From the UHGV virus genome UHGV-0140723: 12,374 nucleotides of DNA. One strand, 5' to 3'. This document shows positions 1-10,508 of the stretch, one piece after another (position 1 is the first letter of the stretch; each line of letters begins with the position of its first letter). A program made the translations under genes and the position numbers. The DNA comes from a virus. Below the pieces are notes generated by a model, which saw only the letters and a program-made list of their open reading frames with translations, was not told where the DNA came from and made no database searches.

Positions 1-236
1 CTTTTTTCGTTGTATTTTGTCAGAATCTCACAAGATAAAACATCATATTTTGTAACCGCTTTGCCTTTGTCGAGGTCAAAGAATCCGAACGCTTTACCGT
101 CTTTGAATCCGACAACTTCGTAAGACTCTTTAATGATTTCACCATTGAACAAATCACTCTCGATACGATGGAATAATGCTACATCCTCTTTGTCGGTTGC
201 AATTTGTAAAAGTGTGGTCAGTTCGACGTGTTCCAT
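1..236 (-). CDS. hypothetical protein, 3' end cut by window edge (78 codons visible, MEHVELTTLLQIATDKEDVALFHRIESDLF...)
   Basis: ATG at 234-236 (minus) preceded by the conserved cassette RBS (sense CCTAAACTGGAGATTCAAAATG). Frame is open to position 3 with no stop; absent from the ORF track because no stop lies in the window. Confidence 0.55.
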   Translation of the reverse strand, partial: MEHVELTTLLQIATDKEDVALFHRIESDLFNGEIIKESYEVVGFKDGKAFGFFDLDKGKAVTKYDVLSCEILTKYNEK

Positions 237-324
237 TTTGAATCTCCAGTTTAGGATTTTATTTAGTGGGGGGAGGTCATCCCCCGTTGATTGACAATTT
301 ACAGATTTTTGATTGTCTCGTCAA
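237..324 (-). promoter_or_regulatory. PeSL-like cassette, family 1 (promoter, 5'UTR hairpin, RBS)
   Basis: Sense strand: -35 TTGACG (319-324), 17-bp spacer, -10 TAAATT (296-301), hairpin GGGGGA/TCCCCC (269-285), then RBS GGAG and ATG. The -35 and -10 lie inside the 3' end and stop codon of CDS 299..829. Confidence 0.6.
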
Positions 325-829
325 TATCTTTTTCAATATCTTTTAAAGTTTTCTCTAAGTTCTTGATATTGAACGTTAAACCTTCACCGAGAGTCTTAGA
401 GTAACCGCTAGGGCGTAAATCATGCAGCTTGATTTCTTCCACATTGGATAAGTTTACCATCTCACCATTTGCAGCATAGGCTATTGATACAGTATTTTTA
501 GGTGCGTTGTAAAACTTGTTTAAGGACTTGATAGAACGTTCATAAGCCATTTTATAGCTATTTAAAAGGTTTTTAACGTGGCTGTGAACGTTTTTACACT
601 CATCTAAATAAAGACCTAAAAACATCGGGAGAAGTTCCGCGACAGCTTGCATAAAGTGAGAGACCACAACGGTTGCAACATTACGACGATGAACGTAATA
701 AGCCCCGTTTTCTGATTTGGTAATGGTTGCAAAGTGTACCCCATTACAACGAAATTCATAGGTATCTTTAACAGGCTTAGACATTACATTATTTGAACGA
801 ATATAGTTGATAGCTTTGAACTTGTTCAT
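299..829 (-). CDS. hypothetical protein (176 aa, MNKFKAINYIRSNN...)
   Basis: ATG at 827-829 sits directly behind the conserved cassette (+ strand cattttagaatctcctagtttaagg). The six-frame ORF 299..922 extends this frame upstream through the regulatory cassette from a TTG codon, which I treat as an artefact. Confidence 0.65.
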   Translation of the reverse strand: MNKFKAINYIRSNNVMSKPVKDTYEFRCNGVHFATITKSENGAYYVHRRNVATVVVSHFMQAVAELLPMFLGLYLDECKNVHSHVKNLLNSYKMAYERSIKSLNKFYNAPKNTVSIAYAANGEMVNLSNVEEIKLHDLRPSGYSKTLGEGLTFNIKNLEKTLKDIEKDIDETIKNL

Positions 830-922
830 TTTAGAATCTCCTAGTTTAAGGACTTTACTTAGTAGGGAGGTTATTGCCTCCCCGTTGATGAGTAATTTAC
901 TTGTTTTGATATCTGATTGCAA
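830..922 (-). promoter_or_regulatory. PeSL-like cassette, family 1
   Basis: Sense strand: -35 TTGCAA (917-922), 17 bp, -10 TAAATT (894-899), hairpin GGGAGG/CCTCCC (865-882), RBS AGGAGA, ATG at 829. Confidence 0.6.
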
Positions 923-990
923 GCAATTTTTTAAGTCTATCTATAAAGAATCTTTTAAGTTAATCCCTTTTAGATAAACCCCCTCGAACA

Positions 991-1019
991 AAGTTACCAA
1001 TGTCAAGAGGGATTGTCAA
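991..1019 (-). promoter_or_regulatory. additional sigma70-like promoter upstream of the 830..922 cassette
   Basis: Sense strand TTGACA (1014-1019), 17 bp, TAACTT (991-996). The segment 923..1051 has no credible ORF. The -35 region tgtcaacatctttttaaa recurs at 2724-2741. Confidence 0.4.
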
Positions 1020-1051
1020 CATCTTTTTAAAAGTTTTTTGTAAGTTATTGA

Positions 1052-1393
1052 TTAACTGATGAATATTTTTTCAGGTTTTACATAGCTGATACGCTGATTT
1101 TTTAGTAGGCTATCCCATAACAAGGCGGCAATGTGCCCATATCCGGCCTCACGCAGCCCCTTCATCGTTTCAACTCGACTCTCAAAACGATTTGCGTAAT
1201 ACTCGCTATTAAGTGTCGTTTTGTTCCCTTCGTTATCTGTATGGATGATTTGCATCACTTGAAAGGGGCTGACATCCTCGCCTTTGTTCCACTGCTCAAA
1301 GTATTTTAGGCACTGCATAGGTGACATCTTATCACTTACTTGAGTTGACCAAGATGAATCTTCTTTATCGGTAATTACAGTTACATAAGCCAT
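1052..1393 (-). CDS. hypothetical protein (113 aa)
   Basis: ATG at 1391-1393 directly behind a family-1 cassette with RBS AGGAGA; ORF from the track. Confidence 0.7.
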   Translation of the reverse strand: MAYVTVITDKEDSSWSTQVSDKMSPMQCLKYFEQWNKGEDVSPFQVMQIIHTDNEGNKTTLNSEYYANRFESRVETMKGLREAGYGHIAALLWDSLLKNQRISYVKPEKIFIS

Positions 1394-1487
1394 TTTAGAA
1401 TCTCCTAGTTTAAGGACTTTATTTAGTGGGGAAGGTCATTCCCTCCCCGTTGATTGACAATTTACAGACTTTTATCAGGCTTGTCTA
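1394..1487 (-). promoter_or_regulatory. PeSL-like cassette, family 1
   Basis: Sense strand: -35 TAGACA (1482-1487, overlapping the TAG stop of CDS 1485..1718), 17 bp, -10 TAAATT (1459-1464), hairpin GGGGAGGG/CCTTCCCC with one G.U wobble (1428-1448), RBS, ATG 1393. Confidence 0.6.
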
Positions 1488-1718
1488 GTCTTTTTCAATG
1501 ATAATTTCATATTGACCATCGACACTGTCAAAATAGACGCCGTCTTCATCTTCTGTCTTAAAGTAGCATTGAATATCATCACTGGCGGGATAGTCTTGTC
1601 TTGCTATCTGGCAAACTTGAATAGCATTTTCTTTACTCCCTGTAAACTCCTCAAGCCCTTTAAAATCACATGAATGACCATTACAAATAGAAAGGATAAG
1701 ATAAACGGTTGTAAGCAT
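1485..1718 (-). CDS. small protein with hydrophobic N-terminus and 4 Cys (77 aa); possibly exported
   Basis: ATG at 1716-1718 with RBS AAGGG about 8 nt upstream. N-terminus MLTTVYLILSICNGHSC is signal-peptide-like. No cassette upstream, only a short hairpin (1737-1751), so probably co-transcribed with 1782..2345. Confidence 0.55.
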   Translation of the reverse strand: MLTTVYLILSICNGHSCDFKGLEEFTGSKENAIQVCQIARQDYPASDDIQCYFKTEDEDGVYFDSVDGQYEIIIEKD

Positions 1719-1781
1719 GATTTAAGCCCTTTAAATGGCCCTGTATGGGCCTTAAGTTGGAAGTTGGTGTCTTTGTACTGA

Positions 1782-2345
1782 TTAACCTAAAAAGTCTTTT
1801 AAATTGCGCTCTGTGATGTTTGCCGTGATTTTATCCAGCAAGTCACAAAACACGGAACTATCACCGCTATTCTGTACAATTTTCGCCATACTTAACAAAT
1901 CATCGTCAACATAGCCTAAATTGCGGTTAGTTGCATCTGGTACAAAGAAAGGTGCATACATCGCACTAAATTTCGTCGAGTGAAGGCCAATAATCCAATT
2001 TTTATCAAAGTGTCCGGTAAAGCTGGCGATATCGCTCATGTTGTCACAAGAATAATCATCCTCTAGCTCTTCCTCTGGGATATCCATCTCAATGACAATT
2101 ACGTCCTGCGTTTCCATTTGGAAAGCTGCCGTAATAAGCCCAGATTCTAAAGCGTTTTGAATGCAGCGTTCACGAATGTAAGAATCTTCCTCATCTTCCA
2201 GACATTCCGTTTTGATAATCTTGTTCATTGGGTAAACGTAGAAACAATCATCCATGTATGAGCAGTTCCAGATTCCTTCCGGCTTGTCGCCACCATTCAG
2301 CAGGTTTACAAAGTTTTTGAGGGTAGTTCCGTGATAGCATTTCAT
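1782..2345 (-). CDS. hypothetical protein (187 aa); possible H-Y-E class ADP-ribosyltransferase-like fold (low-confidence functional call)
   Basis: ATG 2343-2345 behind a family-2 cassette. N-terminal MKCYHGTTLKNFVNLLNGG and downstream GIWNCSYMDDCFYVY resemble, from memory, the YHGT...GG and W-x-x-(F/S)-Y motifs of diphtheria toxin and exotoxin A and the DarT N-terminal motif. No search was run. Confidence 0.45.
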   Translation of the reverse strand: MKCYHGTTLKNFVNLLNGGDKPEGIWNCSYMDDCFYVYPMNKIIKTECLEDEEDSYIRERCIQNALESGLITAAFQMETQDVIVIEMDIPEEELEDDYSCDNMSDIASFTGHFDKNWIIGLHSTKFSAMYAPFFVPDATNRNLGYVDDDLLSMAKIVQNSGDSSVFCDLLDKITANITERNLKDFLG

Positions 2346-2427
2346 TTTTGAATCTCCTAGTTTAAGGATTGAGTGGTAAAGCTCTTTATCTGGGGCTTAA
2401 GTTATCAACTTTTAAGCCCCTTGTAAA
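2346..2427 (-). promoter_or_regulatory. PeSL-like cassette, family 2
   Basis: Sense strand: upstream stop TAA, then -35 CTTTACA (2422-2427), 17-bp spacer containing the 5' arm of hairpin GGGGCTTAA/TTAAGCCCC (2392-2420), -10 TAACTT (2399-2404) preceded by TG, then AGATAAAGAGCTTTACC...CTAAACTAGGAGATTCAAAAATG. Confidence 0.55.
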
Positions 2428-2432
2428 GTACT

Positions 2433-2636
2433 TTATTTGTTATTTTTGACAACTTTTAAAACTGCAAGGTAACCTAAGCAATAAGAATCACCGAAAAGAG
2501 TCCTACCCATGAAAGAATCCTCTTTGATATCCTTTGCAGTGACAGTTTTTTCTACGCCGTGGGAAAGGACTACATCACCAACTTTGATATCTTTGATGTG
2601 TGTTGTTTCAATGGTTAAGCCGTTAATAATAGCCAT
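2433..2636 (-). CDS. hypothetical protein (67 aa)
   Basis: ATG 2634-2636 behind a family-1 cassette; stop TAA at 2433-2435 is the first triplet of the next cassette. Confidence 0.6.
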   Translation of the reverse strand: MAIINGLTIETTHIKDIKVGDVVLSHGVEKTVTAKDIKEDSFMGRTLFGDSYCLGYLAVLKVVKNNK

Positions 2637-2729
2637 TTTAGAATCTCCTAGTTTAAGGACTTTATTTAGTAGGGAGGTTATTGCCTCCCCGTTGATGAGT
2701 AATTTAATCTATCTAAAAATCAGTGTCAA
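2637..2729 (-). promoter_or_regulatory. PeSL-like cassette, family 1
   Basis: Sense strand: -35 TTGACA (2724-2729), 17 bp, -10 TAAATT (2701-2706), hairpin GGGAGG/CCTCCC (2672-2689), RBS, ATG 2636. The -35 directly follows the stop of CDS 2737..3141. Confidence 0.6.
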
Positions 2730-2736
2730 CATCTTT

Positions 2737-3141
2737 TTAAAGTTCTGCGTAGATTGCATCACAGACATCACGGAAATCATGATTTGTTAAGTTACGTTGT
2801 AACCAAGTGGCAAAGAAATCAGCGATTGCAAAATTAGCGTCATACTCGACGGATAGCCACACTTTAACAGCAAATCGGAACATCTTTAAATCAAGCTCTT
2901 TATTCATTACCTTTGATTTGCCTAACATGTCGGCCATCTCATGTTGTGCACCGTCTAGCGTGATACCGGCTGCAACGTCAGCCAATGAGTTTTTTACGCT
3001 TTCAACGTCTAAGATAATACTTTGAATCTTCCCAATAATGTTTTGCAGTGTTTCATCTGGTGCTGATGATGTGATAACATTAATCCGGTTGACGGTCAAA
3101 CGTGCTTTTAAGATAGATAACTCACGATTATTAATAGCCAT
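2737..3141 (-). CDS. hypothetical protein (134 aa)
   Basis: ATG 3139-3141 behind a family-2 cassette (RBS TGGAGA); ORF from the track. Confidence 0.7.
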   Translation of the reverse strand: MAINNRELSILKARLTVNRINVITSSAPDETLQNIIGKIQSIILDVESVKNSLADVAAGITLDGAQHEMADMLGKSKVMNKELDLKMFRFAVKVWLSVEYDANFAIADFFATWLQRNLTNHDFRDVCDAIYAEL

Positions 3142-3221
3142 TTTTGAATCTCCAATTTAGGATTTAGTGGTAAAGCTCTTTATCTGGGGCTTACTTTATC
3201 GAACTATAAGCCCCTTGTAAA
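3142..3221 (-). promoter_or_regulatory. PeSL-like cassette, family 2
   Basis: -35 TTTACA (3216-3221), 17 bp, -10 TAAAGT (3193-3198), hairpin GGGGCTTA/TAAGCCCC (3186-3214) with a 13-nt loop. The central part is identical to the copy at 5239-5267. Confidence 0.55.
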
Positions 3222-3226
3222 GTACT

Positions 3227-3499
3227 TTATGCTAAATGCAGCTTTTTGCCTTTTACTATGATGTAACTTGATGCGCTATTGCCGCATACATCTTGATAAA
3301 TTCTACGCAAACGGCCTTCGTAGTATACTTTCCAGCTAGTTGGAATCTTTTTCCCGTATCCGGTAGCAGTTTTTTGGAATCCTGCAAGTTGCCAATCCAA
3401 AATGTGCTGTTCAGCTTGTAAATCCTCGAAGTGCATTACACCGTTCACATAGTGGCGTAGGGTTACGTTTAAGGTGCGACCGTTGTTAGTAGTGTACAT
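3227..3499 (-). CDS. hypothetical protein (90 aa)
   Basis: ATG 3497-3499 behind a family-1 cassette; stop TAA 3227-3229 abuts the -35 of the next cassette. Confidence 0.65.
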   Translation of the reverse strand: MYTTNNGRTLNVTLRHYVNGVMHFEDLQAEQHILDWQLAGFQKTATGYGKKIPTSWKVYYEGRLRRIYQDVCGNSASSYIIVKGKKLHLA

Positions 3500-3593
3500 T
3501 TTTGAATCTCCTAGTTTAAGGACTTTACTTAGTGGGGAAGGTCATTCCCTCCCCGTTGATTAGTAATTTACTTGTTTTTAAAACTAAAATCAA
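3500..3593 (-). promoter_or_regulatory. PeSL-like cassette, family 1
   Basis: -35 TTGATT (3588-3593, overlapping the TGA stop of CDS 3590..3922), 17 bp, -10 TAAATT (3565-3570), hairpin GGGGAGGG/CCTTCCCC (3534-3554), RBS, ATG 3499. Confidence 0.55.
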
Positions 3594-3922
3594 GAGAAAT
3601 TTTTTCGTTTGTTCAGTTCTTGGACAATTACAGTGTAATAGTCTTTTAAGTCACTGATATTTAAAGCATTTATCAGAGAGTTATAATCATCGACAAGCTG
3701 AAAATTATCTTTGAAAATGTCACTGATTTGATAAGTTTTTGATTGAAATCTGAAGCTCATTTCTAACCGTTTTATTTGTTCATCACTTAAACGCTCCAGA
3801 AAACTCATTACAAGGCTATTATTGACCTGTTGCGTGATTGCCTTACTTGCCAGATTGTAGGCGCTGTACGCCTTATATAGCGCCATAATAGCAATGATTG
3901 CAGTGATACCCATCATTAACAT
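3590..3922 (-). CDS. small membrane protein (110 aa, N-terminal transmembrane helix MLMMGITAIIAIMALY)
   Basis: ATG 3920-3922 overlaps the stop of the upstream gene (ATGTTAA, 7-nt overlap); RBS AGAGGAAG 8 nt upstream. Hydrophobic N-terminus seen directly. Confidence 0.6.
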   Translation of the reverse strand: MLMMGITAIIAIMALYKAYSAYNLASKAITQQVNNSLVMSFLERLSDEQIKRLEMSFRFQSKTYQISDIFKDNFQLVDDYNSLINALNISDLKDYYTVIVQELNKRKNFS

Positions 3923-4212
3923 AGTGCTTCCTCTTTACGTGACACTTTGCCATTTACAGTTATCTCATAAGAATCTAGTAAATCACTTTCAGACTTAACA
4001 GGACTTTTACAAGTATCATCATAAACATTAATTTGCAATACAGGCTTTTTATACTCCCTGCAACTATTCCATAAGCAAATCACTACACGACGGCCTTTTA
4101 TTTTGCCGTGTAACCATTCCATAACCTCATGAGTATTTCTTGAGGTCTCGATAAAATCAATTTTGTTGAGTAACTTGCTTAGATTTTCCCTAACTTTATT
4201 TGATAATTTCAT
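3916..4212 (-). CDS. hypothetical protein (98 aa)
   Basis: ATG 4210-4212 behind a family-2 variant cassette; translationally coupled to 3590..3922. Confidence 0.65.
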   Translation of the reverse strand: MKLSNKVRENLSKLLNKIDFIETSRNTHEVMEWLHGKIKGRRVVICLWNSCREYKKPVLQINVYDDTCKSPVKSESDLLDSYEITVNGKVSRKEEALC

Positions 4213-4292
4213 TTTTGAGTCTCCTAGTTTAAGGTTAGTTAATAAAGCTCTTTATCTGGGGCTATCTTATCAGCTTGATAACCCCGTGTAAA
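4213..4292 (-). promoter_or_regulatory. PeSL-like cassette, family 2 variant
   Basis: -35 CTTTACA (4287-4292), -10 TAAGAT (4264-4269), hairpin sense GGGGTTATC/GATAGCCCC (4258-4285). Inner stem base pairs differ from other family-2 copies by compensatory changes plus one G.U wobble. Confidence 0.55.
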
Positions 4293-4301
4293 GAGGTCTA
4301 T

Positions 4302-4814
4302 TTAGTTCTTAAAGATATTCATCACTGAATCTTTTAATGCTTCCAAGCGTTCTAATACTTCAGATTCTGCGTCTGCGTTGTTCACTTCCTCTTTTAGTCT
4401 GTTATCTAAATCATCGCCGTCACTGTAGCACCAATCGAAAGCATAACCAATATAAAAACTCTCTAAAACCGTGCTACCGTTTGCATCTACAACTTTCGCG
4501 GCGATGTTATATTCTGAAGCCTCTAAATCTCTTTCTAGTTCTTTCTGTAAGCTGATATAAGCCTCTTTTGATGGATTTTCCCGGCCTTGTTTTGCATAGT
4601 CACTCGAAAGCTGTTTCAGGCTGTAATGTAAAGGGATTGCATATTTAAATTCATTACGCTGATAAATAGGATTTTTAACAGTAACACCGCCTTGATGGTT
4701 GTCTGTAAATTCCCAATTATCAAGGTTATGGCTTGCTTCGTAGCAATTAACAGCTTCGTAAATGATGGAAAATTTTTCTTTTACAACTTCAAAGGTAGCG
4801 TCTACAGTTTTCAT
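4302..4814 (-). CDS. hypothetical protein (170 aa, acidic C-terminal half)
   Basis: ATG 4812-4814 behind a family-2 cassette; ORF from the track. Confidence 0.7.
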   Translation of the reverse strand: MKTVDATFEVVKEKFSIIYEAVNCYEASHNLDNWEFTDNHQGGVTVKNPIYQRNEFKYAIPLHYSLKQLSSDYAKQGRENPSKEAYISLQKELERDLEASEYNIAAKVVDANGSTVLESFYIGYAFDWCYSDGDDLDNRLKEEVNNADAESEVLERLEALKDSVMNIFKN

Positions 4815-4894
4815 TTTTGAATCTCCAGTTTAGGATTTAGTGGTAAAGCTCTTTATCTGGGGCTTAAGATATCAGCTTTTAAGCCCCTTGTAAA
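4815..4894 (-). promoter_or_regulatory. PeSL-like cassette, family 2
   Basis: -35 TTTACA (4889-4894), 17 bp, -10 TATCTT (4866-4871), hairpin GGGGCTTAA/TTAAGCCCC (4859-4887). Confidence 0.55.
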
Positions 4895-4902
4895 GTACTT
4901 TA

Positions 4903-5193
4903 TCAGTTAATTTTCAGCTTTGCATAACCTCTCATTGTACGAATGGGAGACGTTAAGGTTACGCGTCTGATATATGCCTTTTTAGTGTATACAGTTGTCT
5001 TCCCGATGGTGTTTACATGCGTGAAAAGGTTTATTGGTGAATTTTTTAAATTCATTTGTTTATCAGCCTTCACACCCCATCTTACAGCAGTTTGTTTTCC
5101 GTTGTCAACCACTTTTCCGCCTAACTTTTTCGCCATGATGCGAGCGTCATCACGAGTTTTTGCAGGAATTACAACGTTTTTGATAATAGCCAT
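4903..5193 (-). CDS. hypothetical basic protein (96 aa, MAIIKNVVIPAKTRDDARIMAKKLGG...)
   Basis: ATG 5191-5193 behind cassette RBS TGGAGAAC. The track ORF 4903..5208 starts at a TTG inside the RBS region and is an artefactual 5-codon extension. Confidence 0.65.
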   Translation of the reverse strand: MAIIKNVVIPAKTRDDARIMAKKLGGKVVDNGKQTAVRWGVKADKQMNLKNSPINLFTHVNTIGKTTVYTKKAYIRRVTLTSPIRTMRGYAKLKIN

Positions 5194-5274
5194 TTTTAAG
5201 TTCTCCAATTTAGGATTTAGTGGTAAAGCTCTTTATCTGGGGCTTACTTTATCGAACTATAAGCCCCTTGTAAA
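5194..5274 (-). promoter_or_regulatory. PeSL-like cassette, family 2
   Basis: -35 TTTACA (5269-5274), hairpin GGGGCTTA/TAAGCCCC (5239-5267), same loop as the 3142..3221 copy. Confidence 0.55.
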
Positions 5275-5282
5275 GTACTTTA

Positions 5283-5663
5283 TCAGTTAATTTTGAAAAT
5301 TGTCACATAGCCGTCACTGCCGATTATTTGAGACACTCCAGCTTTTTCCACTGAATAGCCCATATTTTCAAGATGATAAACAGCATCATCATAACCATAT
5401 GCGCCACCCTGATAACGTCTCTTATCGCATCTTATCAGGTTTTTACCACGTCCTGCAAGTGCATTCAGTACGGCTTTTTCACTTGATAGCGTACCATCTA
5501 ACATGGTTGCCGTGTAATGGTTGATTTTATTCCCGTTAATATCATACTTAAAATTGAATGCGTGAACAACAATCAATTTGCCGTTAAATTTTTCATCAAG
5601 TGACTTCTCCAGTGCGTTGCGGAAGTTGTCTTTGTTGATGAATTTCGGTGCACGATAAGCCAT
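5283..5663 (-). CDS. hypothetical protein (126 aa)
   Basis: ATG 5661-5663 behind a family-2 cassette. Last codons and stop (AAA ATT AAC TGA) are identical to those of CDS 4903..5193. Confidence 0.7.
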   Translation of the reverse strand: MAYRAPKFINKDNFRNALEKSLDEKFNGKLIVVHAFNFKYDINGNKINHYTATMLDGTLSSEKAVLNALAGRGKNLIRCDKRRYQGGAYGYDDAVYHLENMGYSVEKAGVSQIIGSDGYVTIFKIN

Positions 5664-5746
5664 TTTTGAATCTCCTAGTTTAAGGGTTAATTTAGTAAAG
5701 CTCTTTATCTGGGGCTTAAGATATCAGCTTTTAAGCCCCCTGTAAA
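5664..5746 (-). promoter_or_regulatory. PeSL-like cassette, family 2
   Basis: -35 TTTACA(G) (5741-5746), hairpin GGGGCTTAA/TTAAGCCCC (5711-5739), RBS AGGAGA, ATG 5663. Confidence 0.55.
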
Positions 5747-5751
5747 GTACT

Positions 5752-5958
5752 TTATTTGTCGTAGTAGTAAATCGCTGTCTGCCTTGTAAATTTCTTAGTG
5801 TTTCTTGTAAGGTAGCAATTAGAATTAATAGCCGTTTCTACATAGTTGCAATAGTCGGCTTCTGATATTCTGGACCATACGCCACAGATTTTCATGTAAA
5901 AACGTTTTACCTTTGTGTTAACGTTAGTTGTAACCATTAATTCACGATAGTAAGTCAT
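5752..5958 (-). CDS. hypothetical protein (68 aa)
   Basis: ATG 5956-5958 with RBS TGGAGAA; driven by the divergent cassette at 5959..6037. Confidence 0.6.
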   Translation of the reverse strand: MTYYRELMVTTNVNTKVKRFYMKICGVWSRISEADYCNYVETAINSNCYLTRNTKKFTRQTAIYYYDK

Positions 5959-6037
5959 TTTTGGATTCTCCAGTTTAGGAAGTGGGCTGGCTTGCCCGTC
6001 TGATGCAAATATTAAATAACCATAGTCAAAGAGTCAA
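5959..6037 (-). promoter_or_regulatory. divergent promoter + stem-loop + RBS cassette (first module of the array)
   Basis: Sense strand: -35 TTGACT (6032-6037), 17 bp, -10 TAATAT (6009-6014), short hairpin GGGC/GCCC (5984-5997), RBS TGGAGAA, ATG 5958. Same architecture as family 1, different sequence. Confidence 0.55.
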
Positions 6038-6203
6038 TAGGAATTTTAAAAATATTTTTGCAAAAAAAAAAAACTGTAATGAAACGGGTGCGCGCGATTA
6101 CCACAAAACAGAACTATAATCAAGAATTATTTTTCAATCCGCTACAAATTTTTCTGTTGACTTTTATTTTCAGATGTGGTAGCCTTGTGAGAAATGGCGA
6201 CAG

Positions 6204-6400
6204 CCCCACCTACCCCCACCTACCTGCACAATTCTAAAATGATTTTTCTTGCCCGACCTGAGCGGGGTCTGCACGTTTTGAAAATGAAAAAGCTCTTTGG
6301 AGATTACCTGCACAGTTTGAAAATGAATTTTCTCTTTGGAGTTCAAAATTTTCTCTACAGATTTCTCTACAGAACTCTACCTGCACAATTCTAAAATGAA
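6204..6400. repeat. cluster of short direct repeats in an ORF-free segment
   Basis: Four copies of CTGCAC(A/G)nTT(C/T)(T/G)AAAATGA starting at 6224, 6269, 6309 and 6382, two of them within a ~40-bp tandem unit (6268-6302 vs 6308-6342, 28/35 identical); tandem cccacctac x2 (6204-6222); tandem tttctctacag x2 (6351-6373). Confidence 0.6.
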
Positions 6401-6443
6401 AAAGCCCTCCTTACCTGAAAAATTTACCAGATAAGAAAGGCTT
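6391..6443 (-). terminator. intrinsic terminator-like long hairpin downstream of the macrodomain gene
   Basis: Sense RNA: AAGCCUUUCUUAUCUG / loop GUAAAUUUUU / CAGGUAAGGAGGGCUU gives a 16-bp stem with three G.U wobbles, followed by UUUCAUUUU. The wobbles would be C-A mismatches on the opposite strand. Confidence 0.5.
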
Positions 6444-6472
6444 AGGCTATTGTGAATATCCTACAGAGTTTC

Positions 6473-7258
6473 TTAGTTCTTTGCGTCTAAGAAGGTAACT
6501 TCTGGTGAAGAGAAGATTGCCTCGATATCCTCATCAGTTCTTGCATAGATATAAGCTTCTGCATCACTACCAAATGTTACAGCAATTCTGTGATTGCTCT
6601 TTGACAGGTGGGTAACTAGAGCGTTACTTAGAGACATCTTTTCAACCGGAGGGTTACTTTGATGTATCTTACCTTTTCTTCGTCTGAAGAGGGTAACTGC
6701 GTTATCTGTGAACACTGCTACACCTGCAAAGTATTCTGGTTCACAGTAGTTCTTCCAACCTGAGCGTAACTTGTGGTACATCTCGCCTTCATAGACATAC
6801 AGATAAACATCTACACTCTTCATCACCTGATTGATGATAACTGTGATGGCTTGAGGGTCAAGTCCACCGATACCTGCACCAATCATAGGTAAACCAACTT
6901 TCTTCAACTGATTAACTTCACAGTATCTGTTAAGCTGCTTCAAAGATGACTCTAAAGCACTGTATCGGGCATCTTTACCAGTCTTAAGCTGAGTGTAAAG
7001 GTTAGCTATACGGCCTTGTTCTAAACGTGCTACAGAGAAATTACCCAGTAAATTTTCACAGGGTTTGTGGCCTATACCACCTGCATATAGATAAACTTCT
7101 GTATCGGTCTCATATGCTTTTGGGTAAAGTTTAGAAATCTTGTCAGCGATACCTGCACCCATTAAATTCATACAGTTGCAACCGTGACCGATGATGTCAA
7201 ACTTACCTTTATCAAATGCGGCAAAGATATCACCATTGATTATTTTTACAATACCCAT
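6473..7258 (-). CDS. macrodomain protein, TARG1/OARD1/DarG-like N-terminal domain (~150 aa) plus unknown ~110-aa C-terminal domain
   Basis: 261-aa ORF; ATG 7256-7258 abuts the upstream stop (TAAATG) with RBS GGGAGAG. Motifs GDIF...GHGCNCMNLMGAGIA and LPMIGAGIGGLD match, from memory, the GDLF...HCISEDCRMGAGIA and MPRIGCGLD signature regions of human TARG1. Confidence 0.7.
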   Translation of the reverse strand: MGIVKIINGDIFAAFDKGKFDIIGHGCNCMNLMGAGIADKISKLYPKAYETDTEVYLYAGGIGHKPCENLLGNFSVARLEQGRIANLYTQLKTGKDARYSALESSLKQLNRYCEVNQLKKVGLPMIGAGIGGLDPQAITVIINQVMKSVDVYLYVYEGEMYHKLRSGWKNYCEPEYFAGVAVFTDNAVTLFRRRKGKIHQSNPPVEKMSLSNALVTHLSKSNHRIAVTFGSDAEAYIYARTDEDIEAIFSSPEVTFLDAKN

Positions 7259-7982: not shown

Positions 7983-8252
7983 TTACTTCCTCGTTTTAAG
8001 AACTGCTAAGATTTCTTTAGAGTCTGGTAAGAACCATGTGTAGTGATTCTCTTTGATTTCTGGATGAGTGTCAACCTTTATTTTGCACTCTTTACCAACA
8101 TGCTTAAGCTGTGCTGTGACACCTTGCATAAAGATATGACACATCACATTATCCATAATGGTTGGTATGAAGTCAATTCGCATATAAGTTTCTTTTGGTC
8201 GCGGTAACAGTAAGTACCCTTCTACGTAAAAAGTATCTTCATTCTCTGTCAT
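7983..8252 (-). CDS. hypothetical protein (89 aa)
   Basis: ATG 8250-8252 overlaps the upstream stop (ATGA); RBS AGGAAA. Confidence 0.6.
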   Translation of the reverse strand: MTENEDTFYVEGYLLLPRPKETYMRIDFIPTIMDNVMCHIFMQGVTAQLKHVGKECKIKVDTHPEIKENHYTWFLPDSKEILAVLKTRK

Positions 8253-8518
8253 TGCTGTTTATTTCCTAATAAAATCATGTCAATAAGGTTGTTAGCTTTG
8301 ATTGTGCACTGGTAAAAGCCGTCACGATAGAACTCAAGGGCTGCTGCTACATTACTGCCTGTGTTGCCTTTGATGATATACCGTGATTCTTCTTGAGTGT
8401 ACTTGTCACTCTCACTTACTTGGGAGTTTTTGAATGTACTGCTCACTTTGTTCGTTGAACACCCTGACATAGTTATCAGTAACACAAACATTATAAAACT
8501 CTGGCTTAGTTTTTTCAT
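8249..8518 (-). CDS. putative lipoprotein (89 aa); o-spanin-like by architecture
   Basis: N-terminus MKKLSQSFIMFVLLITMSGC is a signal peptide with a lipobox-like MSGC; second Cys in the mature part. RBS AAGAGGT 8 nt upstream. Start lies 107 nt inside the 3' end of 8412..8759. Confidence 0.6.
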   Translation of the reverse strand: MKKLSQSFIMFVLLITMSGCSTNKVSSTFKNSQVSESDKYTQEESRYIIKGNTGSNVAAALEFYRDGFYQCTIKANNLIDMILLGNKQQ

Positions 8519-8759
8519 ATGTTAGTACCTCTTTTGTATGCTTATTCTTAGCAAGCACATCTTTCAAATCATTTTTGTAATTGGTGCTCAGTGTGACTAA
8601 CCCTTCCTGATAAGCATCTTTAGCAACACTTATGAGCTTTTGATTGTTTAGCTCAGTTTCAGCAACTTGATAGTCTCTGTAAGAGTATCCTCCCCAGACA
8701 CCTGCCCCAACTAAGAAAACAATTATGAAAGTAGCTTGACAGAACTCTTTAAATGTCAT
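8412..8759 (-). CDS. membrane-anchored protein (115 aa, N-terminal TM helix FIIVFLVGAGVWGG); i-spanin-like by architecture
   Basis: ATG 8757-8759 with strong RBS AGGAGA 7 nt upstream, immediately after the terminator at 8778..8799; single N-terminal hydrophobic helix then a charged domain. Confidence 0.6.
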   Translation of the reverse strand: MTFKEFCQATFIIVFLVGAGVWGGYSYRDYQVAETELNNQKLISVAKDAYQEGLVTLSTNYKNDLKDVLAKNKHTKEVLTYEKTKPEFYNVCVTDNYVRVFNEQSEQYIQKLPSK

Positions 8760-8777
8760 TTAACAATCTCCTGAAAT

Positions 8778-8799
8778 GAAAAAGGCTCCCGAAGGAGCC
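8778..8799 (-). terminator. rho-independent terminator
   Basis: Sense RNA GGCUCC-UUCG-GGAGCC, a perfect 6-bp GC stem with UUCG tetraloop, followed by UUUUUC. Lies 13 nt after the stop of CDS 8812..9276. Confidence 0.8.
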
Positions 8800-8811
8800 T
8801 GTATCTTAACC

Positions 8812-9286: not shown

Positions 9287-9982
9287 TCAATGTTTAACTA
9301 ACATGGTTTTGATGTGTGGAAGGATTCTGCTCACCTTCTGCACATTCTTCTCTGTGTCTTCTATAAAACATACTATATTAAAGTAAGGCAGAATGCAAGA
9401 CTGAATCATCCTCACTTTCAAACTTTCTGCACTTATAGAGTTAGTTCCAAAACCACGCATAAAAAGCATGTAATCATGCTCTATGTAATGCCTTAAAAAC
9501 ATCTCAGTAGGGATTCTCTGAGATTCACCTCTAGCTGTCAAGAGTCCAATGGCAGCATGATTAGCAATTGCATCAATGATATTGAAAACATACGTCGGCT
9601 TTGCACTTACAGAGTCAAGCAAATTAGTGTACTGTGAAAATGACCCATCAATCAATTCCGTTGAGTAATCTTCGTGATTAAAATTTGTAAGAACACCATC
9701 AATGTCTGCTAAGATAAGGTTACCTTTTTCTACAAGGTCTTTATTGGCTATGACTAAGCTGTCACGCCTTACACCTATAGTTTGTCCAGTCTCTTTATCT
9801 ACAACATTCACAATTGGCTCTGATGTGTGAAACTCTTCAAGTGAACATATAACTTCTCTTGCAGTGTCTTCAAAATCCCTACACTGTTCTGGAGTCCATA
9901 CACAGGAATTAAGACCTAACTCATGAGGATGTAAGTCATAAGCATGACACAGTACTTCATCAGACTTTCTTAATTTTTTCAT
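9287..9982 (-). CDS. HAD-superfamily phosphatase-like protein (231 aa); resembles the 3'-phosphatase domain of T4 polynucleotide kinase/phosphatase but has no P-loop kinase domain
   Basis: HAD motif I LILADIDGVLT, motif II GLLTARGES and a C-terminal acidic motif FIEDTEKNVQKV parallel, from memory, the FDVDGTL, VVSGRES and AIDDRTQVV motifs of T4 Pnk. No GxxxxGK(S/T) anywhere. ATG 9980-9982 overlaps the upstream gene by 23 nt. Confidence 0.65.
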   Translation of the reverse strand: MKKLRKSDEVLCHAYDLHPHELGLNSCVWTPEQCRDFEDTAREVICSLEEFHTSEPIVNVVDKETGQTIGVRRDSLVIANKDLVEKGNLILADIDGVLTNFNHEDYSTELIDGSFSQYTNLLDSVSAKPTYVFNIIDAIANHAAIGLLTARGESQRIPTEMFLRHYIEHDYMLFMRGFGTNSISAESLKVRMIQSCILPYFNIVCFIEDTEKNVQKVSRILPHIKTMLVKH

Positions 9983-10508
9983 GATTTACCTTAGAAATGT
10001 TTGTTGCAAATTCACATTGAGCGATAACTTTCATGTTGTTATAGACATCTTGAGAATACTTCTTAGCTTTAGGGATTCTGTACGAATACCCAGCATTATA
10101 TGATGCTAAAACTTTTTGTAAAGTCTTCTTTGACTTTGGCTGACCATGTACCTTTGTCCAAAACTCAAGCTCTTTGTGCGTTTCCTTTGCAGCATAGTCA
10201 AAGTCTTTTAAGAGTTTCTTTTTAGCCACATTAGGACTAATTTTGTTACGCTTTACAACAGTCTTCAAGTGATTCTGGAAAATACCATAATCATGTGTCT
10301 TTTTATTCTCTACCTTCAGACCTAACTCTGACTCTTGTAAGGCTATAGCAGCTAGAGTGATACCCCAACCTTTGCCCATGTTATTCTCACCATACTGGTA
10401 AGCTTTTAACATGTTTACTTTTTGGCTAATTGATAGCTCTGGGCAGTCAACTGCATAAGATAAGTGTGCTGTAAACATTAAGCACAAACCTAGAATCAAT
10501 TTCTTCAT
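9960..10508 (-). CDS. exported lytic transglycosylase-like protein (SLT domain, 182 aa) with cleavable signal peptide
   Basis: N-terminus MKKLILGLCLMFTAHLSYA is a signal peptide. Family-1 lytic transglycosylase motifs ALQESELG (catalytic E-S), DYGIFQN and LASYNAGYSY. ATG 10506-10508 with RBS AGGAGAA. Confidence 0.8.
   Translation of the reverse strand: MKKLILGLCLMFTAHLSYAVDCPELSISQKVNMLKAYQYGENNMGKGWGITLAAIALQESELGLKVENKKTHDYGIFQNHLKTVVKRNKISPNVAKKKLLKDFDYAAKETHKELEFWTKVHGQPKSKKTLQKVLASYNAGYSYRIPKAKKYSQDVYNNMKVIAQCEFATNISKVNHEKIKKV

Follow-up and report, generated by a model that had tools for sequence, protein, structure and literature searches.

An overlapping pair of genes in a Felixounavirus genome most probably encodes the two-component spanin of a Felix O1-like myophage, belonging to the JH2/Felix O1 family and having the overlapped architecture; we put the probability of this reading at about 0.9. 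The window (12,374 nucleotides [nt] of UHGV virus genome UHGV-0140723) is assigned to Felixounavirus, with 98% identity to Escherichia phage finno, and its long open reading frames (ORFs) all lie on the minus strand, as do the features of the pair given below. The upstream gene (8412..8759) would encode the inner-membrane subunit (i-spanin) and the downstream gene (8249..8518) the outer-membrane lipoprotein (o-spanin), and the genes are referred to here by these names. Both were taken from an ORF list and read directly; the ORF coordinates and the 107-nt overlap in another frame given by the initial annotation were exact in every coordinate.

The pair is already known, since it has been catalogued in a published census and annotated in relatives and genome announcements. 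The census (Kongari et al. 2018, BMC Bioinformatics 19:326; PMC6139136) places Felix01 in its "JH2" i-spanin and o-spanin families, as "Overlapped," together with JH2, EC6, FO1a, Moogle, Mushroom, UAB_Phi87, WV8, and others. The JH2 i-spanin family has 15 members, including PhiEco32, NJ01, ECBP2, and KBNP1711, and the JH2 o-spanin family has 11 (PMC6139136). Inner- and outer-membrane spanins are also reported in the genome announcements of Moogle and Mushroom, which describe the lysis genes of Felix O1-like phages as scattered, with no cassette and with the spanins away from endolysin and holin. From architecture, topology signals, and gene context, we infer that the JH2/Felix O1 spanin family functions in lysis.

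The i-spanin gene

The i-spanin gene (8412..8759) starts with ATG and encodes 115 amino acids (aa). Its best 17-residue Kyte-Doolittle window covers residues 6 to 22 (FCQATFIIVFLVGAGVW; mean, 2.0; nt 8694..8744), and a search for a second hydrophobic segment by hydropathy over the whole protein returned none. The 88 residues that follow this segment are polar, with 13 K+R and 13 D+E, in agreement with the earlier description of one N-terminal transmembrane helix and a charged C-terminal domain. The protein is predicted to be a type II inner-membrane protein, N-in, with a short cytoplasmic N terminus, one transmembrane domain (TMD), and an 88-aa C-terminal part in the periplasm, an orientation that we infer from these features. 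Homologues have the same single-TMD layout, and the record of the Kuravirus Paul homologue carries a TMpred note.

The C-terminal end of the domain holds the family-invariant motif EK..F.N.C....Y...FN, with invariant residues (alignment numbering) E81-K82 .. F87. N89. C91 .... Y96 ...F. N101. C91 is Cys92 of the protein (codon at 8484..8486), its sole periplasmic Cys, invariant in the family alignments and a candidate intermolecular-disulfide residue. Full-length similarity was found to PHROG 1152, "Rz-like spanin" (E = 1e-41). AlphaFold2 (AF2), run from a shallow alignment, gave an all-helical model at low confidence (pLDDT 52). A crude heptad a/d hydrophobicity test did not separate the i-spanin from shuffled sequences; lambda Rz, a known coiled coil, failed the same test.

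The o-spanin gene

The o-spanin gene (8249..8518) also starts with ATG and encodes an 89-aa predicted prolipoprotein. Its N terminus (MKKLSQSFIMFVLLITMSGC) consists of a KK n-region, a hydrophobic core, and M-S-G-C, and satisfies a PROSITE-type lipobox pattern. The signal peptide and lipobox (MKKLSQSFIMFVLLITMSG followed by C-S) occupy residues 1 to 20 (nt 8459..8518) by pattern fit. The lipobox reads TMSG/C, where Met at -3 departs from the strictest form, L-[AS]-[GA]-C. Cys20 (codon at 8459..8461), the lipobox Cys, is predicted to be acylated and is invariant across five genera; a LipoP SpII score of 18.0 is given in the record of the Kuravirus Paul homologue. The +2 residue is Ser, and Asp, the inner-membrane retention signal, is absent there. 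Processing by Lgt, LspA, and Lnt and sorting by the Lol "+2 rule" are established lipoprotein pathways, so the lipobox and the Ser at +2 predict an outer-membrane lipoprotein.

The mature form would be 70 aa long with no Pro, and its sole Cys besides the lipidated Cys20 is the family-invariant Cys71 (codon at 8306..8308). The lipoprotein-type signal peptide noted initially is thus supported by the lipobox pattern, and the additional Cys reported with it is Cys71. Besides C20, the invariant residues are C-terminal: G54, D66, C71, N76, and L78. Residue 55 is Asn in the window and Asp in the 29 IMG/VR loci that were checked. In an AF2 model from a shallow alignment, again of low confidence (pLDDT 59), a signal helix is followed by disorder at about residues 19 to 43 and by helices at 54 to 75 and 78 to 88. 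As a trend only, this model predicts a flexible tether (about residues 20 to 43) and a C-terminal helical hairpin (54 to 88). The o-spanin matched PHROG 4180 ("unknown function"; E = 1e-49) and, weakly, the spanin PHROG 456 (E = 3e-3).

Each gene has its own ribosome-binding site (RBS), as the initial annotation had stated in calling both strong. AGGAG (8768..8772) lies 8 nt upstream of the i-spanin ATG, and GAGGT (8527..8531), which falls inside the i-spanin gene, lies 8 nt upstream of the o-spanin ATG (both by direct reading). Searches of Pfam gave no significant family for either protein, and a PDB sequence search with family profiles gave nothing below E = 0.2 for either subunit.

The start of the o-spanin is treated variously in public records. 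In finno and in most automated gene calls it is set at the internal Met10 or later, and the largest o-spanin database cluster (303 members) is a 73-aa truncated form. Met1 and its RBS are invariant among relatives, and Met10 is not conserved, being Ile or Thr in several of them, which makes the 89-aa form the correct gene model.

Relatives and divergent homologues

When phage records were searched with the 1.3 kb surrounding the pair, 258 matched, and in 244 the match spans 80% or more of the query; the best are Felixounavirus genomes at 98% identity. With tblastn at a coverage of at least 80%, the i-spanin was found in 402 phage records and the o-spanin in 333. The pair is annotated as i-spanin and o-spanin in finno, Andreotti, VSe11, Mushroom, Sf14, Moogle, and others, so the comparison with annotated spanin pairs of related phages proposed in the initial annotation returns this same pair. 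The two-component spanin layout that it had recognized is upheld by these annotations, by the 2018 census (PMC6139136), and by the PHROG 1152 match. Identity to Felixounavirus proteins annotated as spanins is 96 to 100% for the i-spanin and 91 to 99% for the o-spanin. Individual tblastn identities were 96.5% for the i-spanin (Mushroom) and, for the o-spanin, 91% (JH2), 96.6% (UAB_Phi87), 80% (Moogle), and 30% (NJ01). Both subunits thus belong to the JH2/Felix O1 family by sequence. The Felixounavirus spanins (Felix01, JH2, Moogle, Mushroom, and UAB_Phi87) are the same genes, matching in overlap, TMD, lipobox, and one periplasmic Cys per subunit, and the window pair differs from the family by strain-level substitutions only.

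An overlapped pair is retained at 24 to 34% protein identity in Kuravirus, Kolesnikvirus, Carvajevirus, and Gorganvirus, with the o-spanin conserved down to 28 to 34%. The overlap is 116 nt long in Kuravirus Paul, 137 nt in the Kolesnikvirus Erwinia phage phiEa21-4, and 164 nt in Klebsiella phage Carvaje. In Proteus phage 2207-N35, an overlapping +1-frame lipoprotein ORF likewise starts inside the 3' end of the gene for the TMD protein. The i-spanin-first overlapped arrangement is kept in all relatives examined.

The features of the spanin class are present in the pair: a single N-terminal TMD, a signal peptidase II lipobox with no Asp at +2, i-spanin-first adjacency, and periplasmic Cys. Conservation in the family alignments identifies one invariant periplasmic Cys per subunit, C92 in the i-spanin and C71 in the o-spanin. 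A periplasmic Cys was found in 507 of 528 two-component spanins, and intermolecular disulfides have been proposed as a general requirement for such spanins (PMC6139136); the predicted arrangement of one invariant periplasmic Cys per subunit is consistent with that proposal. The most conserved parts of both subunits are their C-terminal regions, which is consistent with a C-terminal pairing of the subunits, as judged from the alignments.

Overlap and dual coding

The dual-coding overlap (8412..8518) is 107 nt long, and the o-spanin frame is +1 relative to that of the i-spanin. The o-spanin ATG lies 241 nt after the i-spanin ATG, and the o-spanin gene runs 163 nt past the i-spanin stop. Within the overlap, one frame carries the conserved i-spanin C-terminal motif, and the other specifies the o-spanin from its signal peptide through the lipobox to the beginning of the tether.

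Diversity was measured over 511 homologous nt in 29 IMG/VR loci and in Sf14; these 30 loci comprise 28 distinct DNA sequences. Nucleotide diversity at codon positions 1/2/3 was 0.08/0.06/0.23 (mean, 0.121; i-spanin frame) in the i-spanin-only part and 0.09/0.05/0.33 (mean, 0.157; o-spanin frame) in the o-spanin-only part. In the overlap it was 0.060/0.045/0.064 (mean, 0.056; i-spanin frame), so that the third position is relaxed in neither frame and mean diversity is about one-half to one-third of that in the single-coding parts. This pattern shows selection in both frames.

Two readings would deny that there are two overlapping genes, and both are rejected on the strength of the intact in-register pairs, the codon-position diversity, and the retention of the overlap in divergent homologues. 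Indel errors sometimes yield long out-of-frame overlaps, and the initial annotation had offered a frameshift error as its alternative, in which the locus would really be one ORF or two nonoverlapping ORFs. That an assembly or sequencing artifact of this kind produced the overlap is next to impossible. In 31 of 31 related loci, neither ORF is interrupted and the register is unchanged; lengths and overlap are also the same, except that the Sf14 o-spanin is one residue shorter, and most of the sequences compared are distinct. The region is covered by the 244 GenBank records noted above, divergent homologues in four genera keep the +1-frame lipoprotein ORF within the 3' end of the TMD gene, each ORF has its own RBS and ATG, and the overlap is constrained in both frames. 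Equally slight is the probability that only the 115-aa gene is real and that the 89-aa ORF is an untranslated chance ORF in an alternative frame. In favor of that view, many GenBank records leave the o-spanin unannotated, call it "hypothetical protein," or give it differing start codons. Past the overlap, however, the codon-position diversity of the 89-aa ORF has a coding pattern, with 328 synonymous versus 129 nonsynonymous codon differences in the o-spanin-only part; its protein is conserved in divergent genera, where C20 and the five C-terminal residues listed above stay invariant; and its RBS and Met1 do not vary.

Gene neighborhood and transcription

In finno and many relatives, the upstream neighbors of the pair are rIIA, rIIB, a "putative lysin," polynucleotide kinase, and a hypothetical protein, and downstream there are small hypothetical genes and a macro-domain protein. 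In the window, the pair adjoins neither a holin nor an endolysin gene. The early region in which the initial annotation had placed the pair is suggested by the rIIA, rIIB, and polynucleotide kinase neighbors alone. It had also named an exported lytic transglycosylase nearby (9960..10508): the N terminus of that product is indeed signal-peptide-like, but its Pfam SLT score (19.2 bits) falls below the cutoff (21.3), and the statement is thus verified only in part.

An intrinsic-terminator-like hairpin, AGGCUCC-UUCG-GGAGCCU followed by UUUUU (8778..8800; terminator scan), lies between an upstream 154-aa gene and the i-spanin RBS, and the minimum-free-energy fold includes it. The records of phages Paul and phiEa21-4 carry a terminator annotation at the corresponding position; Sf14 lacks the hairpin, and its upstream gene abuts the i-spanin gene. 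The hairpin may limit the read-through that reaches the spanin genes. A sigma-70 promoter scan between the upstream gene and the i-spanin gene gave no site, with overall counts at shuffle level, and Rfam and tRNA scans of the window gave nothing.

Against the spanin reading stand the lack of a holin or endolysin neighbor, the upstream hairpin, the unlabeled PHROG 4180 with only a weak match to a spanin PHROG, the lack of Pro in the mature o-spanin, the low confidence of both AF2 models, and the heptad test, which gave no sign of a coiled coil but failed on lambda Rz as well. The pair could instead be an early-expressed envelope system of another kind, in which a superinfection-exclusion or receptor-masking lipoprotein (compare T5 Llp and Cor) acts with an inner-membrane partner. 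Its location among rIIA/rIIB, polynucleotide kinase, and small early-looking genes, with no lysis cassette, would suit such a system, as would an o-spanin whose PHROG carries no function. A literature search for experiments with spanins of the Felix O1 or phiEco32 type, including any on a lysis role of the family, found only annotations and the bioinformatic census. We nonetheless consider this alternative distinctly improbable. Gram-negative Caudoviricetes generally need a spanin, and no other candidate is annotated in the relatives' records examined. Four other genera keep a TMD protein and a lipoprotein together as an overlapping gene pair. Carvaje has the pair directly after genes annotated as "holin or antiholin," lysozyme, and "holin or antiholin," and Proteus phage 2207-N35 has it directly after an annotated endolysin, which is itself preceded by two unannotated small hydrophobic proteins; in both, this is the canonical spanin position, directly after the endolysin. 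Functional spanins also lie outside the cassette in T4, beside pseT (PMC6139136).

Comparison with lambda and T4 spanins

The predicted spanin resembles lambda Rz/Rz1 in functional class and predicted topology, a type II inner-membrane protein with an outer-membrane lipoprotein. In both, the o-spanin start codon lies within the i-spanin gene, in the +1 frame, and periplasmic Cys is available for intermolecular disulfides. The arrangements differ: lambda Rz1 is fully embedded in Rz, whereas the window o-spanin is overlapped and extends beyond the i-spanin stop. The mature form of lambda Rz1 is about 40 aa long and proline-rich. Compared with it, the mature o-spanin of the window is longer, has no Pro, and has a C terminus that is predicted to be helical, whereas the Rz1 periplasmic domain is unstructured (PMC6139136). 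The periplasmic domain of the i-spanin is 88 aa long in the window versus about 130 in lambda Rz, and the lambda genes are in the SRRzRz1 cassette, whereas the window pair is outside any cassette. Homology to lambda was sought with hhalign and none was found (probability, 0.65% for Rz and 9% for Rz1, the latter covering the signal and lipobox only).

In genome position, the pair is more like T4 PseT.3/PseT.2, whose genes are also outside the lysis cassette, adjoining the polynucleotide kinase gene (pseT) and small early-type genes. The i-spanins are close in size (117 aa in T4 versus 115 aa in the window), and neither o-spanin is proline-rich, both being structured (T4, PMC6139136; window, predicted). 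The T4 spanin genes, however, are separated and upstream of pseT, whereas the window genes overlap by 107 nt and are downstream of the polynucleotide kinase gene. Periplasmic Cys is absent from the T4 i-spanin, and the T4 o-spanin has two essential ones (PMC6139136), in contrast to one periplasmic Cys per subunit in the window. BLASTP against the T4 proteins gave no i-spanin alignment and an o-spanin match in the signal peptide only; hhalign probabilities were 0.7% (i-spanin) and 8.4% (o-spanin). BLASTP (T4), hhalign, and gene arrangement place the pair outside the sequence families of lambda Rz/Rz1 and of T4 PseT.3/PseT.2.

The family itself differs from both of these studied spanins in having exactly one invariant periplasmic Cys per subunit, within the conserved C-terminal region that presumably mediates interaction, and in having an o-spanin with no Pro and a predicted helical hairpin.

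Proposed mechanism

From the established Lgt/LspA/Lnt and Lol pathways, the o-spanin would be lipidated at Cys20 and cut by signal peptidase II, and Lol would then deliver it to the outer membrane, in the inner leaflet. The remaining steps are modeled on lambda Rz/Rz1. The i-spanin would be anchored in the inner membrane, and the C-terminal helical region of the o-spanin would bind the C-terminal motif of the i-spanin, forming a periplasmic bridge through the peptidoglycan mesh. C92 of the i-spanin and C71 of the o-spanin would form Dsb-dependent intermolecular disulfides that stabilize oligomers. After holin triggering and degradation of the murein by the endolysin, the freed complexes would oligomerize and fuse the inner and outer membranes, completing lysis.

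In lambda and T4 spanins, the disulfide bonds are homotypic. A heterotypic bond between C92 and C71, covalently stapling the inner- and outer-membrane subunits, is conceivable in the JH2/Felix O1 family, though we regard it as unlikely. If true, it would be a mechanistically distinct way of building a periplasm-spanning fusion machine.

Significance

Beyond correct annotation, the finding has little significance, as the pair would be an overlapped spanin of textbook type, one already included in a curated census and in many GenBank records. Its practical yield is the correct o-spanin start (Met1, with the KK n-region and RBS) for a gene that is missing from several records. The homologous pairs in the lysis cassettes of Klebsiella and Proteus siphophages lend contextual support to the JH2/Felix O1 spanin family. 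The locus also illustrates dual-frame purifying selection cleanly enough to serve as a worked example. Its overlap, which carries an internal RBS, keeps two partners that must co-evolve together in place and in inheritance.

Public annotations of the o-spanin gene (window 8249-8518, minus strand) are inconsistent. Among the calls compared (Escherichia phage finno, 27164..27385; phage Sf14, 79947..80141; and clusters P0024-P0037 of public gene calls), the protein is given as 89 amino acids (the full form), as 73, 68, or 64 amino acids, or the gene is omitted. The 73-amino-acid form, which starts at internal Met10, makes up the largest cluster (303 members). Met1, the start of the 89-amino-acid form, does not vary, nor does its ribosome-binding site (RBS); starting further in deprives the shorter products of the basic n-region or of a larger part of the signal peptide. 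One phage was concluded to have "only the i-spanin" (PMC8300805).

The o-spanin homologues of Kuravirus Paul (L003 2679-2939), Klebsiella phage Carvaje (L005 2501-2749), and Proteus phage 2207-N35 (L037 2447-2740) have at least one additional Cys in the periplasmic tether (e.g., LKAECRVD and VQKCQTEN). No such additional Cys is present in the Felixounavirus and Mooglevirus o-spanins; therefore, the number of possible disulfides varies within one family.

Directly upstream of the i-spanin RBS is a strong terminator-like hairpin with a UUCG loop (window 8778-8800, minus strand), and terminators are annotated at the equivalent place in Paul (L003 2409-2430) and Erwinia phage phiEa21-4 (L004 2246-2265). 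Sf14 differs, as its i-spanin gene is abutted by the upstream gene. The hairpin may be a conserved device that either limits transcription of the spanin genes or makes it depend on read-through.

A polynucleotide kinase gene (window 9287-9982, minus strand) neighbors the spanin pair (8249-8759), and its start overlaps by 23 nt the 3′ end of a gene for a 182-amino-acid protein (9960-10508, minus strand). The initial annotation described the latter product as an exported lytic transglycosylase. Export agrees with the signal-peptide-like N terminus (MKKLILGLCLMFTAHLSYA), and the enzymatic assignment is left tentative by the sole domain match, to Pfam SLT, which scored below threshold (19.2 versus 21.3 bits). 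A search of the PDB by sequence found no relative of the protein, which is annotated as "putative lysin" in related phages; the known endolysin of Felix O1 is distinct from it and encoded elsewhere. In phage T4 (L006 8003-9782), the spanin genes likewise neighbor the polynucleotide kinase gene, but the T4 spanins are not homologous to those of the window phage, and the gene order is reversed. The common neighborhood could reflect chance or a "non-cassette" location that the two phages share.

Repeated intergenic modules of two families (30 to 95 nt long, 67 to 100% identical) were found at window 228-5980, with one module 5′ of nearly all small minus-strand genes in the left half of the window (e.g., 2355-2447, 3149-3241, 4822-4914, 5202-5294, and 5674-5766, as well as 821-851, 1385-1415, 2628-2658, and 3491-3521). 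On the minus strand, each runs from a GC-rich hairpin through a conserved AT-rich stretch to CCTTAAACTAGGAGATTC..AAAATG (RBS and start). The modules resemble repeated cassettes (terminator, promoter, and leader) belonging to an array of early genes; they also account for the recurrent plus-strand "ESPSLRTL" pseudo-ORFs. A stretch of ∼500 nt (5960-6470) is poor in ORFs and carries no annotation in finno. Three to four copies of a 23- to 34-nt motif, which reads TTTTCATTTTAGAATTGTGCAGGTAG and variants on the minus strand and CTACCTGCACAATTCTAAAATGA on the plus strand, lie there at a spacing of 39 to 84 nt, together with a T11 run; scans for tRNAs and Rfam families returned neither.

A gene for a macro-domain (Appr-1-p processing) protein (window 6473-7258, minus strand; Pfam Macro, E = 4.5e-7) lies ∼1 kb downstream of the spanin pair. 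A macro-domain gene is immediately downstream of the pair in the podovirus Paul (L003 2939-3379) and in phiEa21-4 (L004 2784-3566). Synteny of spanin and macro-domain genes is common to a podovirus group and the Ounavirinae.
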